Below are positions 19,226 to 50,811 of a stretch of DNA of 54,802 nt, piece by piece. Under the pieces are notes generated by a model that saw only the letters and a list, made by a program, of their open reading frames with translations, ran no database searches and was not told where the DNA came from. Source of the DNA: Clostridiales bacterium (GTDB taxonomy: Bacteria; Bacillota; Clostridia; Saccharofermentanales; Saccharofermentanaceae); NCBI GenBank assembly GCA_017513085.1, contig JAFWDK010000020.1, positions 1-54,802 on the forward strand. The letters run 5' to 3'. The stretch's first letter is position 1, and every line of letters starts with the position of its first letter. Made by a program: the position numbers and the translations under genes.

Positions 19226-19684
19226 TCAAAGACCCAGGATCTTCAGTGCATCGTTAACAGCGGTGGAATCAGAGCCGCTTGCCATGATAAGGACCTCATC
19301 TGCAAGAATCAAAACTGTGTAGGAAGTGCTCTCTTCAGCCACGATCTTGTTGTCGGAAATGGTCAGGTTGGTAATCTTTCCTTCTTCTTTCCCCACCTGC
19401 ATGGTGTTTTTCATGTCATCAAAACTCTTCTTCGCATCTGCTTTGCTCAGGTAAGTAAGATGAGAGATCATGAAGTACAATATGTTTTTATTGACGGCGA
19501 TCAGGAAGGAATTAACATTATCTGAAGGTGGTACCTCATCGCCATAAACATCGTATGACGCAGCCTCAAGCTTCGTCCGAAACTCCTCGGCAGAAATCTT
19601 TTTAGTCTTTTTCTTGCACGCAGCGATAGAAAGAACCATTGCGAAAACCATCAGCATGGCTACCAGTTTTTGTGCTGTCTTCAT
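19226..19684 (-). CDS. Lipoprotein of unknown function
   Basis: GGAGG RBS, MKTAQK...LSIAA-C lipobox. Confidence 0.75.
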   Translation of the reverse strand: MKTAQKLVAMLMVFAMVLSIAACKKKTKKISAEEFRTKLEAASYDVYGDEVPPSDNVNSFLIAVNKNILYFMISHLTYLSKADAKKSFDDMKNTMQVGKEEGKITNLTISDNKIVAEESTSYTVLILADEVLIMASGSDSTAVNDALKILGL

Positions 19685-19892
19685 ATGTGTGTCCTCCTTG
19701 CATGCTCTTAAAGATAAGTAGGTTATCATTCACTAGAATAATTTATATCTACAATTATATACTGTTGTTGTCAATAGGGTGTATAATGGACCCATCATTC
19801 ATATAGAAGCATTTTGATATTCCGATCAGATGATGTGATTAATGCTGTTGATGCCGATGCCATGTTGATCCTGCCGGCACGCCCGCTTCGGA

Positions 19893-20717
19893 ATGAAAAC
19901 CATCATCGAAAGGAATATTTTTATGCAAGACGTGATCCAACTCCTGAAAGAACGGCAAGCCCAACTCGAGAAAGTGCTTTTGCAGGCGGAACAAGACCTC
20001 GCGAAGCTGCCGGAGGGAAGGCTTAAGTTTTCCTTCAGCAACAAAAAACTGCAATATTACTATACTCGTTCAGGTGACGAGAAGAAGATGTATATTCCTT
20101 CTTCCAAACGAGATTTAGTGAATCAGCTTGCGCAACAGAACTATTTGAACGAGTTGATTCCTTTGGTAAAAAAAGAACTGCAGGATATCAGTAGTTTCAT
20201 GAAGAAGAATCATCTTGGGGCTGCGGAGCAAGTATTCCGTGAAAGTCACCCGCACCGTAAATCGTTGATTTCTCCGTACATGGTTGATAATGAAACATTT
20301 GCAGAGCTTTGGCTCGAGCATCCTTTTGATCCGAATCCGGCATTTCCCGAGGAACTGATCTATCCGACCCGCCGTGGAGAGCGCGTTCGGACCAAGGCCG
20401 AGGCCCTGATAGCGGATATGTATTATGATCTCGGAGTCCCATACAAGTACGAGTGTCCAGTCCGACTTTTAAATGGTAAGCAAAAGTATCCCGACTTTAC
20501 CCTACTCAACAAAGTGACCCGAAAAGTGTATTTTCATGAGCACCTCGGATTGCTCGACGATTCCGGCTACAGAAAGGACAATATGATCAAGCTTTCCCAA
20601 TACCGACAAATAGGGATCTATACCGGCAAAAACCTGATACTCACTCACGAAACAAAGGACAGTCCTCTGGATCTGGTCACTTTGCGGAAAAATACGATTG
20701 AACTGTTTCTGAAATAA
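19893..20717 (+). CDS. Uncharacterised protein: helical N-terminus plus C-terminal PD-(D/E)XK-like (Vsr/DUF559-type) nuclease domain
   Basis: GERVRTKAEALIAD...VPYKYE...YPDFT...FHEHLG motifs; alternative start at 19923. Confidence 0.65.
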   Translation: MKTIIERNIFMQDVIQLLKERQAQLEKVLLQAEQDLAKLPEGRLKFSFSNKKLQYYYTRSGDEKKMYIPSSKRDLVNQLAQQNYLNELIPLVKKELQDISSFMKKNHLGAAEQVFRESHPHRKSLISPYMVDNETFAELWLEHPFDPNPAFPEELIYPTRRGERVRTKAEALIADMYYDLGVPYKYECPVRLLNGKQKYPDFTLLNKVTRKVYFHEHLGLLDDSGYRKDNMIKLSQYRQIGIYTGKNLILTHETKDSPLDLVTLRKNTIELFLK

Positions 20718-20767
20718 TCCCAGAAGGGGAGCCATGGGGAGCCATAGCAACCTTGGCTAAGGTGTGA

Positions 20768-21017
20768 TTACGGTCTAAAACAGAGAAAAGCATCGTTTGG
20801 CCCGTAAATTGGGGGTGGTAAGTCTTGGCTAACTCTGCTGTTTACGGGCCAGATTACTAAAAACGTTGATTTAGCCCGTAAAAACAAGTGCTTTTTCATG
20901 GGATTTACGGGCTGGAATGAAGAAATCGTTGATTTAACCCGTAAATATCAAAGAAATAATGCAAAAAACGTAGAATATTACGGGCTATTTTGCCAATATT
21001 GTCGATCTTGCCCGTAA
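20768..21017. repeat. Array of four 40-bp palindromic units TTACGG[GT]-N26-CCCGTAA with variable loops and spacers
   Basis: Units start at 20768, 20842, 20905, 20978; spacers 34, 23, 33 nt. Confidence 0.8.
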
Positions 21018-21249
21018 TAGAGATGGTTAGTGTTGACTAACCGACAGAAGGACTACGGTCTGATCCGGAAAAAGGAGTTTTTTTGACCGTAATGTATCGA
21101 TGAATTTGTTTTGTTGAAGTGCACATCGTTTTTCTCGAAAAGCACTTCCGCGCGGCGGTCTTCGTGCCCTTGAGGTGTTCTTCGGGTGTAGGGGCGAACA
21201 AAAAGGTACCCCGCAGCGCTCGATCGCGCTACGGGGTGATCGATAGGGC

Positions 21250-21630
21250 CCTCCAGCCCCGGCTTCCCGCCCGGGTTGTTTCGCCTTGCAGGCTCCAACC
21301 CCGGCTCCAGCCCAGGCTGTTCCGGCCCGCGCCGCCGCCCCGGGGCAAGTTTCTCCGTTTTTACGATGATGATGCGGCTGCGGCGGGGCCCGCCTCTCGG
21401 GCAGTCCTGCCCGGGTTTGAGATGGTGCTGTTCCAGCCCCGGCTGTTCCGGCCCGCGCCGCCGCCTCGGGGTAAGTTTCTCCGTTTTTACGGTATGATGA
21501 TGCGGCTGCGGCGGGGCCCGCCGCTCGGGCAGTCCTGCCCGGGTTTGAGATGGTGTTGTTCCGGCCCGCGCCGCCGCCCGGGGGGCAAGTTTCTCCTTTT
21601 TTACGATGATGAAGCGGCGGCTGCGGAGGC
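21250..21630. repeat. GC-rich tandem duplication (about 113-126-bp units) including the DUF4003 gene stop region
   Basis: TGTTCCGGCCCGCGCCGCCGCC...AAGTTTCTCC at 21318, 21444, 21557. Confidence 0.8.
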
Positions 21631-22593
21631 GGCGGCTGCCGAGGAGGCGATGATCGCGATCTCGACGGCGATGATAGCTGAGATGATGGTGCTGATCGCG
21701 CTGTCGCGAACGGCGCTGTTGCCTGCATCGGTGTACGATTCGATCACAAGAGCGCAAGCGATCAGATCACGGATACGCTTGCCGGCGCCCATCGCGCCCA
21801 TGCCACGGATCTTTCTCAGCTTTTTACTCGTCTCGTGGATCATAGAAGCAACTTCCTGAAGATCCTCCTCGCGCACCAGCATAGCGATGGAAGCAATAAC
21901 CGAGAACGCATCCCCGGAAAAACGCAGCCCCACCTGCTTCAGTGCTTTTTGAGTTGAAACGACGCGCAAAGCTTTGTCTTCCGGACGTCCGTCAAAAATA
22001 CTGGTGATGCAAGCCATATACTGGATCCTGTTTTTCAGACGGTAGTAGTCGTGCAGAGCCCGGAAGTCATCTTCGCAACGGCGCGCGATCTGTGTTTCGC
22101 TATAATCGGAAAGCGCCATGAGTACGCAGTTGCTAAGATCTTCGCGTCCGGTGATCATGGGATGATCTCTACGGATGAGCTTATAGATCTCACGTGTTCT
22201 GGAAACGATACGGCTGTAGTCCGCGGGATCCGCATTGCTGTAGATCATATTGGCGGCCAGGACAAGATAATCGGAATTGAAAAACTTTTCGTCCAGCGCA
22301 CTGTGGATGAAACGGATAGTGTCCATCGCTACTTGCGGCTCCTCGCTCATGCTTACGGTGGCCGCGATGACCTGGCTGGCATTACCATGACCGAGCGTGG
22401 AGAAAATGCCCGTATTCGAACGGACGACCTTCTTGGCATCTCTCAACCTCTCCGGTGAAACCACGAAATTTCGCCCGATAAAAGCAGCGGCACAGGCAGA
22501 TGCCTCTAAACTGGTGTTCAAGACGTAGGCGCTTTTGGCGGCGCGGAAATTGGACTCAAAGATTTCAATGCTTCGGTTGATGTTGTTTAACAT
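21601..22593 (-). CDS. DUF4003 family protein
   Basis: YKLIRRDHPMITGRED motif and poly-Ala/Ser C-terminus; GAGGTG RBS. Confidence 0.75.
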   Translation of the reverse strand: MLNNINRSIEIFESNFRAAKSAYVLNTSLEASACAAAFIGRNFVVSPERLRDAKKVVRSNTGIFSTLGHGNASQVIAATVSMSEEPQVAMDTIRFIHSALDEKFFNSDYLVLAANMIYSNADPADYSRIVSRTREIYKLIRRDHPMITGREDLSNCVLMALSDYSETQIARRCEDDFRALHDYYRLKNRIQYMACITSIFDGRPEDKALRVVSTQKALKQVGLRFSGDAFSVIASIAMLVREEDLQEVASMIHETSKKLRKIRGMGAMGAGKRIRDLIACALVIESYTDAGNSAVRDSAISTIISAIIAVEIAIIASSAAAASAAAASSS

Positions 22594-22949
22594 ACAGGAC
22601 ACCTCACTTTCTGTTCGTCGATATCTTACCATTGCGCCGTTTCAGAAGTGGTTAAGGCATGTTTAAGGTTTTATATATTCGGGGCACGATTTATAAAGAA
22701 AATATTCAGCCTCGCCGGTGAGATCTTTTCTGCGCCCAAAGCACTGTTTCTTTTTGTTTTTTCTTGTTTTTGTCTTTCGCGCGTGTTCGATAGGTAGTAT
22801 AATGAACTGGTCGAAAGACATATTTATTCTCAGCCCTCACGCTGGGTGACGTGATATGATTTCCGAATGCCTGAGTGCTTCAGATTATGATACCTCGTCG
22901 GAGGTGAAAGGAAGAGGACCTGTTATCCGAAATAACGGAAAAATAGGGC

Positions 22950-31333: not shown

Positions 31334-31389
31334 CGAACACAACACCGAACAGTCTTTCGGAAACCAGGAAAGTCCGGTCTGATTAGGAC

Positions 31390-31745
31390 GATTACGGGTG
31401 AAAATGAAGAAATCGCGAATTCACCCGTAATCCGTTTCCGTGACGCCGGGTCGATTACGGGTGAAAATGAAAAAATGCCGAATTCACCCGTAATCCGTTT
31501 CCGTGACGCCGGGTCGATTACGGGTGAAAATGAAGAAATGCCGAATTCACCCGTAATCCGTTTCCGTGACGCCAGGTCGATTACGGGTGAAAATGAAAAA
31601 ATTGCGAATTCACCCGTAATCCGTTTCCGTGATGCCAGGTCAATTACGGGTGAAAATGAAGAAATGCCGAATTCACCCGTAATCCGTTTCCGTGACGCCG
31701 GGTCGATTACGGGTGAAAATGAAAAAATGCCGGATTCACCCGTAA
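31390..31745. repeat. Six 63-bp tandem units, each with palindrome ATTACGGGTGAA...TTCACCCGTAAT
   Basis: ATTACGGG at 31391, 31454, 31517, 31580, 31643, 31706. Confidence 0.95.
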
Positions 31746-47000: not shown

Positions 47001-47586
47001 TGGCCTCGGCGATGAGGATTTTGTCGAGATCCTTTATAAGACATTCTTTGACCGTGCATCCGATGCTGCCGGTAAAAAGGGCTGGGTCGATGCGATCAAG
47101 AGCGGTAAGATGACCCGCGCGGTGGTAGTGGAGAACTTCATCGAGTCCACGGAATGGTGCAACATCTGCGCGACTTATGGCGTACGCTCCGGTGCGAAGT
47201 GGCACAAAGCCGAGTTCGCTTCCAAGAATGCGATCAACTTTGCCACACGTCTCTACACCTGCTGCCTCGGAAGAGAACCGGAAGAAGGCGGTTTGAAATA
47301 CTGGTCGTTAGCTCTGACTAACATCGAGCAGACCGGCTGCAGCGCGGCGAGGGAATTCTTCACCAGCGACGAGTTCATCGGCTTCAAACTGAAGGACGAT
47401 GAGTACGTGAAGCGACTCTATACCACCTTTATGGGACGTGATCCGGAGGCAAGTGAAGTTGCGTACTGGGTTAGAGAGATCGCTAAGGGCACACAGACGA
47501 AGGACAGCGTTATGGCTTTCTTCGGAAGTAGCGAGGAGTTCACCAAGATCTGCAAGAAGTATGGAATTGAGCGCGGAGAGATCTGA
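44026..47586 (+). CDS. Large LRR surface protein with PTK-repeat linker and C-terminal DUF4214 domains
   Basis: Signal peptide, IDESHFPD cap, extensive LRRs, (PTK[ATV])n, FKDFVERLY...GIERGEI. Confidence 0.88.
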
Positions 47587-50417: not shown

Positions 50418-50811
50418 TTCATACCTTTTTTGCGGGGTTATACCTTTTTCTCTCGAATTCATACCTTTGAGGCAAAAAACGTCAAAAGGTATGAATTCTT
50501 GATGCTCGGGAGAGGGTGATTTCATACTTTTGGAAGAAAAAAGTTGAAAAGGTATGAATTCCTGGTGCTCGGGAGAGGACGGATTCATACCTCTGGGGCA
50601 AAAAACGTCAAAAGGTATGAATTCTTGGTGCTCGGGAGAGGGCGGATTCATACTTTTGGAAGAAAAAAGTTGAAAAGGTATGAATTCCTAGTGCTCGGGA
50701 GAGGGCGGATTCATACTTTTGAAAGAAAAATGTTGAAAAGGTATGAATTCCAGGTGCTCGGGAGAGGGCGGATTCATACTATTTGAAGAAAAACGATGCA
50801 AAAGTATGAAT
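50418..50811. repeat. Six 63-bp tandem units with palindrome TTCATAC-N24-GTATGAA, plus two upstream half-sites
   Basis: TTCATAC at 50458, 50521, 50584, 50647, 50710, 50773; half-sites at 50418 and 50438. Confidence 0.95.

Follow-up and report, generated by a model that had tools for sequence, protein, structure and literature searches.

A putative homodimeric nuclease and its helically phased palindrome array may form an undescribed mobile cassette of gut and rumen Clostridia

What joins a small gene without an assigned protein family to the tandem array of palindromes that begins shortly after its stop codon? The question is raised by a locus in a 54,802-nucleotide contig of a Clostridiales bacterium (JAFWDK010000020.1, assembly GCA_017513085.1), hereafter the window, which is the whole of contig C15 in a 3.06-Mb, 36-contig genome of 47% GC. 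An earlier note on this DNA, made from the letters and their translations, took the gene for an orphan PD-(D/E)XK-like nuclease and proposed either that its product binds, processes or spreads the repeats, in the manner of repetitive extragenic palindromes (REP) and REP-associated tyrosine transposases (RAYT), or that it uses RNA from the array as a guide. Analysis of the window, of the remaining contigs and of homologous loci in other genomes leaves the first proposal as the best-fitting one and speaks against the second, given the phasing of the units and the homogeneity of sister arrays. We put at about 0.6 the probability that gene and array belong together as a cognate pair, one of a large and so far undescribed family in which a homodimeric endonuclease is accompanied by phased sites in a selfish mobile cassette.

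The features on which the question rests are present as first described: an open reading frame (ORF) of 274 codons is followed, after a gap of 50 bp between its stop (20717) and the first unit (20768), by four units of the form TTACGG[GT]-N26-CCCGTAA, separated by spacers of 34, 23 and 33 nucleotides (Table 1). Database gene calls begin at the second ATG (19923), which is probably the true start and gives a protein of 264 amino acids. Searching the window with the pattern TTACGGK-N20-32-CCGTAA gave 20 matches over both strands, equivalent to 10 units, four of them in the array at the ORF and six at 31392-31745; shuffled windows are expected to contain 0.04 matches, and 20 was reached in none of 100 shuffles. 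The same search bore out the recurrence of the arms, together with the loop word AATGAAGAAATCG, in the homogeneous array at 31.4 kb, the word being common to unit 3 and to the first unit at 31392. The stretch had also been called more AT-rich than its flanks, a difference that is moderate on the gene side only: the GC fraction of 20800-21100 is 0.385-0.39, compared with 0.445 in the 3' part of the gene, 0.69 downstream and 0.47 genome-wide. In assembled contigs from public runs, no gain or loss of units and no joints were found in the ORF array, and an A>G change at 20937, present in three of the four runs compared, turns the right arm of unit 3 into GCCCGTAA, that is, perfects it.

Whether such arrays accompany the gene elsewhere was assessed at 80 homolog loci from species-representative genomes of rumen and gut Lachnospiraceae, Butyrivibrio, Oscillospiraceae and unclassified Clostridiales, 79 of which are independent, L011 and L014 being one contig filed twice. 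By strict detection, the 77.8 kb of sequence lying no more than 500 bp from the gene contained the edges of 38 arrays, 27 of them upstream and 11 downstream, compared with three arrays in 341 kb of farther flank and none inside the family genes themselves, a near-gene density about 50-fold above that of the farther flanks. An independent detector of 8-mer direct repeats was positive in 34 of 77 near windows on the upstream side and in 10 of 80 on the downstream side, the figure for control windows being 12 of 671. With both detectors pooled, an array was present at 49 of the 80 loci, in 35 cases solely upstream, in 11 solely downstream and in 3 on both sides; the upstream arrays end 28-250 bp before the gene start. 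A second sample, 20 loci from an even draw of the class, yielded an array at 10 by the strict criteria. In the source genome itself, tblastn detected five copies of the gene, on C15, C21, C24, C32 and C4, and all five adjoin a palindrome array, with different arms for each (Table 1), so that the single co-occurrence counted in the earlier note was an underestimate. The survey of homolog flanks that it had suggested came out positive, the flanks being strongly enriched for palindrome arrays of 36-45 bp whose arms change with the protein. The link between protein and array is not due to chance.

The spacing of the units carries a second signal. Start-to-start distances fall into narrow classes of 52-54, 62-64, 73-76, 83-86, 94-96, 104-107 and 124-127 bp, with nothing between them. 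For 48 arrays, representing 26 sequence families, the mean deviation from multiples of 10.5 bp was 0.81 bp as compared with 2.64 bp for random spacings; none of 100,000 random draws was as low, and a scan of the lattice constant placed the minimum at 10.5-10.6 bp. The replicate sample gave spacings of 52, 52, 53, 54, 65, 73, 74, 75, 75 and 84 bp. Different classes mix within one array, between spacers unrelated in sequence, as seen in the C15 array (74, 63, 73 and 75 bp) and at other loci (96 and 75 bp in L061, 86 and 96 bp in L064). Because on-lattice classes mix in this way, the "variable spacers" of the C15 array are in fact length classes one helical turn apart. The phasing bears the mark of selection for the rotational placement of sites around double-stranded DNA, and it points to protein binding on one face of the duplex and not to RNA guides; we know of no reason why RNA hairpins or guides would be phased on helical turns. 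A palindrome covers about 33-47 bp (median 39), its arms measuring 7-13 bp and its loop 13-27 bp, so that the two half-sites are roughly three turns apart. A/T runs within units recur about every 10 bp, a weak signal in an analysis that is not independent of the array period, and suggest intrinsically bent DNA.

Near the dyad, a run of 5-7 A or T is frequent in the loops of units that share no other similarity, for example at 31392-31430 and 50457-50497.

A third line of evidence is that the arms follow the protein. Homologs more than 84% identical share arms, while at 60% identity or less the arms nearly always differ; unshared arms were found in 417 protein pairs with a median identity of 41%. 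The pairs of 94-98% identity that were scored as having different arms all involve L031, where the detector took the second of two palindromes in the same unit, and the C21 paralog and L001, which are 59% identical, have half-sites one base apart and array periods of 52 and 53 bp. Across loci, this comparison is confounded by whole-locus relatedness. Stronger evidence comes from within single genomes, where paralogs differ in their arms and gene-less arrays carry the arms of a resident paralog. Two such gene-less arrays lie in the window (Table 1), and the distant genome of Butyrivibrio proteoclasticus P18 contains, besides the L038 array, three more 75-bp arrays that carry its arms and lie away from all eight family matches in that genome.

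When the source genome was scanned for three or more palindromes with the same arms, 18 arrays were detected, 16 of them intergenic and two consisting of protein-coding repeats within ORFs, the latter being the sole ones off the spacing lattice. Four of the 16 intergenic arrays adjoin a paralog, the imperfect array on C24 having escaped the detector. The intergenic arrays carry the arm families of the paralogs, a TTACTGG family and, in one case, GATAAGA arms, and each arm family is represented by 1-6 arrays. The TTACTGG family is always accompanied by TTACGGGC units in a composite element.

Several observations on these arrays stand apart from the pairing of gene and arms. The composite element, of about 450 bp, is near-identical at four places (C8, C12, C26 and C32, near contig ends) and consists of 3-5 TTACTGG..CCAGTAA units, 2-3 TTACGGGC..GCCCGTAA units and GGTTAG..CTAACC palindromes; three copies end their contigs, and its arrays break the genome assembly. 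The C4 paralog (C4:16248-17052, minus strand) is a pseudogene with a frameshift and internal stops, and an array of four and a half units still lies directly downstream of it. The GATAAGA-armed array, at C23:32758-32976, is intergenic, has on-lattice spacings (106 and 53 bp) and no family gene nearby, and may represent a further arm family without a resident gene.

The protein belongs to a large family. A word search returned 110 clusters at 90% identity, all labeled "hypothetical", and an exhaustive search returned 5,912 clusters at 50% identity with E <= 1e-3, of which 4,108 had E <= 1e-10. The ESM Atlas likewise gave "hypothetical protein" clusters only, with DUF6788 on a minority. No significant family was found for the query in Pfam or NCBIfam (no Pfam match at E <= 0.1) or, in Pfam, for 29 diverse members, and a sequence search of the PDB gave no sequence-level match to any solved structure. 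AlphaFold2, run with 29 homologs, produced a model with a predicted local distance difference test (pLDDT) score of 93.4. In its N-terminal part, helices 2-28 and 60-95 form a long hairpin into which a three-stranded sheet (33-57) is inserted; its C-terminal part, about residues 144-264 of the 264-residue form, is an alpha-beta domain of the PD-(D/E)XK type resembling Vsr and I-Bth0305I. The top Foldseek matches are PD-(D/E)XK nucleases (Bax1, the DrdV nuclease domain, the R2 endonuclease, AF1548 and VRR-NUC; probability 0.97-0.99, E about 1e-2). VIA-align, which is independent of Foldseek, matched residues 131-264 to the catalytic domain of I-Bth0305I (3r3p_B; Z 9.1, root-mean-square deviation 3.0, 92/98 residues), in a tie at Z 9.1 with a mitoribosomal protein of Toxoplasma, and further to NGO0050 (Z 8.4), Bax1 (Z 8.4) and TnsA (Z 8.3). 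Domain homology points the same way: the C-terminus of the PADLOC profile PDC-S68 is matched by all 29 members, the query aligning to profile positions 1093-1214 of 1221 with E = 5e-25. The predicted fold and the PADLOC homology together support the initial assignment of the C-terminal half to the PD-(D/E)XK-type nucleases. The same C-domain terminates open frames of about 1240 amino acids and plasmid genes annotated as AAA ATPase or RecD-like helicase.

Residues R156, K158, E160, Y176, D191, E206, G209, Y216, K223 and Y227 are invariant in the 29 members and H207 is nearly so, a conservation from which we infer that the protein may be active as a nuclease. The N-terminal half is variable, with a background pairwise identity of 0.20-0.42 as opposed to 0.45-0.69 in the C-domain. 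Folded alone (pLDDT 91.1), its sheet-plus-helix part gave no informative structural match in Foldseek (best hit chromo-like, E 0.5) or VIA-align (best Z 3.8); it may conceivably be a DNA-binding module of the AP2 or integrase-arm type. In three protein pairs that share arms, residues ~33-53 are 0.53-0.67 identical against a background of 0.40, which hints, as a lead from three cases, that this segment may carry specificity. Prediction of a homodimer gave a score of 0.82 against 0.00 for the best control, a mark reached in benchmarking by 20 of 30 solved pairs of one chain and by 1 of 23 single chains. Runs agreed in at least 97% of contacts, with a pLDDT of 88, and the interface is symmetric, formed by the long helices and a conserved GKNLILT strand. 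The modeling thus supports a symmetric homodimer.

Comparisons among related loci suggest that gene and array behave as a mobile cassette of about 1.2-1.7 kb. In two Butyrivibrio genomes the segment holding array and gene is 96% identical, compared with 84% for the adjoining lysS segment, and between L031 and L045 the module is 94% and the flank 84% identical. At the site 3' of lysS, LysS proteins that are 93-95% identical are nevertheless followed by nucleases of 40-42% identity, and the converse, LysS at 90% with nuclease at 98%, is also seen there; of 20 further Butyrivibrio genomes, 18 lack a family gene closer than 2.5 kb to lysS. One metagenome-assembled genome (MAG) carries at two places (L039 and L040), between unrelated flanks, a 97%-identical segment of 1.72 kb made up of the last 35 bp of lysS and a 330-bp leader, then the array and the gene, and finally 25 bp beyond the gene. 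The family is patchy, occurring in 26 of 299 genomes of the class, and multi-copy, with several matches per genome (five in the source genome, and 7-8 paralogs in a Butyrivibrio isolate). No conserved gene was found among the neighbors across the 80 loci, the commonest being lysS at 12. Relatives in the genus of the source organism have diverged (85-91% in rpsF/ssb) and are not syntenic around the window's gene. No full-length homolog was found on plasmids, and two peptide patterns found no relatives in IMG/VR contigs; one short fecal contig labeled "bacteriophage" carries a homolog of 28% identity.

At the lysS site of L031, the ORF 3' of the cassette (L031:3960-5000) resembles, from its translation, what we take to be an abortive-infection (Abi) gene, and a fragment at L031:5450-5600 resembles the 3' end of a second family gene.

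We propose that the gene would encode a two-domain homodimeric endonuclease, in which a variable N-terminal part is joined to a conserved Vsr/EDxHD-like PD-(D/E)XK catalytic domain, and that in duplex DNA the dimer would read both inverted arms of every unit of ~40 bp. Spacing by whole turns would seat several dimers on one face of the helix and allow a cooperative nucleoprotein assembly. The cassette would move horizontally and duplicate within genomes as a selfish module, and gene-less arrays with the same arms would be left or seeded in intergenic DNA, as REP are around RAYT genes or as landing sites are for free-standing homing endonucleases. A bolder extension, to which we give slightly less than even odds, is that such loci make up, alongside CRISPR and REP/RAYT, a third type of nuclease system tied to repeats, with thousands of variants each carrying its own sites next to the gene, in which a one-sided filament would drive homing or duplication of the cassette and seed the gene-less arrays.

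A number of observations weigh against a cognate endonuclease in a selfish cassette. The array at the ORF is colinear in three other metagenomes, with single-nucleotide polymorphisms as the sole differences, and so is not hypervariable. Contigs from an RNA library span 20411-20561, 20766-20987 and 21036-21186, a weak indication of transcription in a library in which DNA may be present. At the borders of the duplicated 1.72-kb segment there are no terminal inverted repeats and no target duplications, and the two copies, which come from a MAG, could represent two strains. Arrays lie mostly on one side of the gene (on both sides at 3 of 49 loci), unlike the ends of a classical transposon. A clean empty site was not found in the sole comparison available, that of L031 with G353 (L089) at the lysS site, where the 2.4-kb difference also removes half of the neighboring gene; the missing segment runs from just after lysS to the middle of the Abi-like gene of L031. 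A candidate second duplication, L011 and L014, was rejected, these being two contigs of one MAG that are 99.95% identical over 6.4 kb and reflect assembly redundancy. In the putative active site, the strand reads E-H-L(-G), which places the lysine off the canonical +2 position of (D/E)XK. Finally, the strict detectors miss 31 of the 80 loci, and the downstream windows of these loci are not enriched for palindromes (13 of 30, against 24 of 90 controls). Upstream, imperfect palindromes are common at the same 31 loci: at least two occur in 22 of 26 testable windows, compared with 9 of 73 upstream controls, and at least three in 15 of 26, compared with 1 of 73.

The alternative that survives best, though we consider it unlikely, is a domesticated architectural or regulatory DNA-binding protein, the dimers of which would bend or insulate DNA or regulate their own gene from phased sites, nuclease activity having been lost or being incidental. 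Helical phasing is typical of architectural and operator arrays; at 35 of the 49 loci with arrays the units lie upstream only, ending at the short distance from the gene start given above; the weak periodicity of A/T runs would suit such a role, as would the stability of the C15 array between samples. Against this, the candidate catalytic residues are invariant in 29 diverse members, three of the five arrays in the source genome are downstream of the gene, and the family was found in only 26 of the 299 genomes of the class, while the discordant identities of module and flank, together with the very divergent variants found at one site, fit a selfish element better.

A role in defense, in which the protein would act against phages or plasmids from within variable islands and the arrays would serve as regulatory or self-marking sites, is a little less likely again. 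It would account for the homology of the C-domain to the C-termini of PDC-S68, PDC-S69 and HEAT_CxxC_PD-DEXK, for the patchy distribution, for the replacement of one divergent variant by another at a single site and for the Abi-like gene directly downstream of the cassette in L031, a putative identity read from its translation. However, only the catalytic domain is held in common with PDC-S68, no partner gene is conserved (lysS, the commonest neighbor, reaches 12 of 80 loci), and phage and viral collections contained no relatives except on the one short fecal contig. Several paralogs coexist in a genome, each with its own arms and with dispersed gene-less arrays, a property that defense systems are not known to have.

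Far less probable than either is a guide-RNA array, transcribed and processed so that its loops or spacers would direct the nuclease as in CRISPR or TIGR-Tas. In its favor, the nuclease does adjoin conserved motifs that take turns with variable inserts, no intrinsic terminator separates gene from array on the plus strand, and the RNA-library contigs cover part of the array, subject to the possible presence of DNA. Spacings quantised in steps of 10.5 bp argue otherwise, as do sister arrays whose loops and spacers are near-unchanged from unit to unit. The side of the gene on which an array occurs varies, and the C15 and C4 copies differ in how their loops are oriented relative to the gene. As single strands, the C15 units fold weakly (-4.1 to -6.6 kcal/mol, with loops of ~24 nucleotides). 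The loops and spacers, when compared with phage and plasmid collections, as the earlier note had advised, gave no match, and an Rfam scan found no family in the window array and no group I or II intron in the window. The absence of Cas and Nop motifs noted at the outset was upheld, in that Pfam and NCBIfam returned no such family and the sole Cas row in PADLOC was a weak Cas6b match (E 0.0061) in 1 of the 29 members. Coincidence, with commonplace intergenic repeats lying by accident next to a hypothetical gene unrelated to them, has a negligible chance of being right, for although arrays also exist without the gene and only 4 of the 16 intergenic arrays adjoin a paralog (that on C24 going undetected), all five paralogs have an array and the ~50-fold enrichment at the gene, across 80 loci of many genomes, was replicated in the second sample.

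How a cognate nuclease-array pair would relate to known systems can be judged from their likenesses and differences. REP/RAYT appears to be the closest analogy, in logic: there too a gene is flanked by its own short palindromes, the repeat sequence is particular to a paralog or clade, gene-less copies are dispersed in intergenic DNA and transposon partners are lacking. RAYT proteins are HUH Y1 transposases, and their repeats are present in hundreds of copies. The protein described here is instead Vsr-like PD-(D/E)XK, not Y1_Tnp, and is without a Pfam or NCBIfam match, its units form direct tandem arrays quantised in helical turns, arguing for duplex DNA over single-strand hairpins, and each arm family numbers 1-6 arrays rather than hundreds. 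Among nucleases, the best structural match of the catalytic domain is the EDxHD endonuclease I-Bth0305I, which likewise combines a Vsr-like domain with a multidomain homodimer, predicted in our case. I-Bth0305I is described as a multidomain homodimer that has a ~60-bp footprint and prefers a pseudopalindrome (PMC3239194). Array periods in the present family range over 52-96 bp, with 63 and 75 common, a size similar to that footprint. Unlike the EDxHD endonucleases, the family gene lies in neither an intron nor an intein, being free-standing and intergenic with varied neighbors, and it carries an adjacent array of sites. Compared at the level of motifs, its strand reads E-H-L-G in place of E-D-x-H-D.

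Other parallels are more partial. PDC-S68 and PDC-S69 contain the homologous C-terminal nuclease domain, matched by 29 of 29 members, yet what is common with PDC-S68 amounts to about 120 residues of a protein of about 1200, and the family of 264-residue proteins is set apart by an N-terminal half of its own and by its arrays. Tandem, often palindromic protein-binding units in helix phase, or palindrome mosaics with linkers of set length, also make up plasmid centromeres and iterons such as sopC and parC and the bacterial interspersed mosaic elements (BIMEs) of E. coli. The present arrays are similarly tandem, helix-phased and made of short palindromic units, but they lie at chromosomal loci, lack a neighboring ParA, ParB or Rep gene and are paired with a nuclease. 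The alternation of conserved motifs and variable inserts next to a nuclease recalls CRISPR and TIGR-Tas. In contrast to CRISPR, no cas genes adjoin, the units are pairs of inverted arms, and the spacers fall into length classes 10.5 bp apart and are repeated almost unchanged in sister arrays; in contrast to TIGR-Tas, which is defined by a Nop-domain Tas protein, Pfam showed no Nop-domain family in the query or the 29 members. Tn7-like elements combine TnsA with TnsB and TnsC and have ends that carry transposase sites; here TnsA is a neighbor in fold only (Z 8.3), no partner genes are conserved, and the module borders have no terminal repeats. The locus thus lacks defining features of CRISPR, TIGR-Tas, REP/RAYT, Tn7 and the intron-borne EDxHD endonucleases. 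Full-text searches of main articles for DUF6788, for palindromic repeats, tandem or phased, in combination with a nuclease and for Butyrivibrio repeats found nothing on it, the nearest literature being the papers on I-Bth0305I. The evidence suggests a nuclease-plus-repeat system of gut and rumen Clostridia that has not been described before, as opposed to a guide-RNA array.

The gene-by-gene pairing and the 10.5-bp lattice are strong, reproducible signals of a specific and undescribed protein-DNA machine, and the lattice is in itself an unusually clean in vivo readout of the helical repeat of DNA. If the protein does bind and cut its sites, the family would represent a new class of selfish or domesticated element in gut and rumen Clostridia, and would account for a class of intergenic repeats at which assemblies break, four contig ends of the source genome among them. 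Thousands of natural pairs of nuclease and target site would also become available, and from these a recognition code might be learned, read from genomes alone.

Table 1. Gene, palindromic units and arrays in the window, and the arrays that adjoin the five paralogs of the source genome.
Feature	Position	Strand	Remarks
Nuclease gene ORF	19893..20717	+	274 amino acids; contains the motifs quoted in the earlier note
Palindromic unit 1 (TTACGGT...CCCGTAA)	20768..20807	.	Pattern match; arms imperfect
Palindromic unit 2 (TTACGGGC...GCCCGTAA)	20842..20881	.	74 bp after unit 1
Palindromic unit 3 (loop contains AATGAAGAAATCG)	20905..20944	.	63 bp after unit 2
Palindromic unit 4	20978..21017	.	73 bp after unit 3
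Short palindrome GGTTAG-N6-CTAACC	21025..21042	.	Between units 4 and 5; motif also flanks arrays elsewhere in the genome
Fifth unit, degenerate (TACGGTC...GACCGTAA)	21054..21092	.	~75 bp after unit 4
Gene-less array, arms of C15 family (TTACGGGTGAA...TTCACCCGTAA)	31389..31745	.	5.7 copies of 63 bp, homogeneous, between convergent genes
Gene-less array, second arm family (ATTCATAC...GTATGAAT)	50457..50811	.	5.6 copies of 63 bp; same arms beside the C32 paralog
Array of paralog C15	downstream of gene		Arms TTACGGGC
Array of paralog C4 (frameshifted)	downstream of gene		Arms TTACGGGTGAA
Array of paralog C32	downstream of gene		Arms ATTCATAC..GTATGAAT
Array of paralog C21	upstream of gene		Arms GTCAGTG..CACTGAC, period 52
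Array of paralog C24	upstream of gene		Imperfect GGTTAGATC..GAGCTAATC units

The surroundings of the array yielded some minor observations. A consensus promoter scan of 19600-21700 called none; read by eye, TGTATAAT at 19780-19787, about 105 bp 5' of the ORF, is an extended -10-like word. Directly 3' of the array, at 21150-21700, lies a GC-rich stretch (~69%) with several terminator-like hairpins and a 128-bp tandem repeat of 2.1 copies (21306-21567), and the long ORFs listed on both of its strands appear spurious. A strong minus-strand hairpin at 21237..21208 probably terminates the convergent gene 21601..22632. The 16-bp palindrome GTTAG-N6-CTAAC, mostly in the form GTTAGC-N4-GCTAAC, has 49 copies in the genome, as compared with 0-39, mostly 10-20, for permuted control words; 14 copies flank palindrome arrays, 16 cluster on C23, and those of the window are at 21026-21041 and 47307-47322. 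Another DNA-binding protein may recognize this palindrome, or it may be a second type of site belonging to the system.

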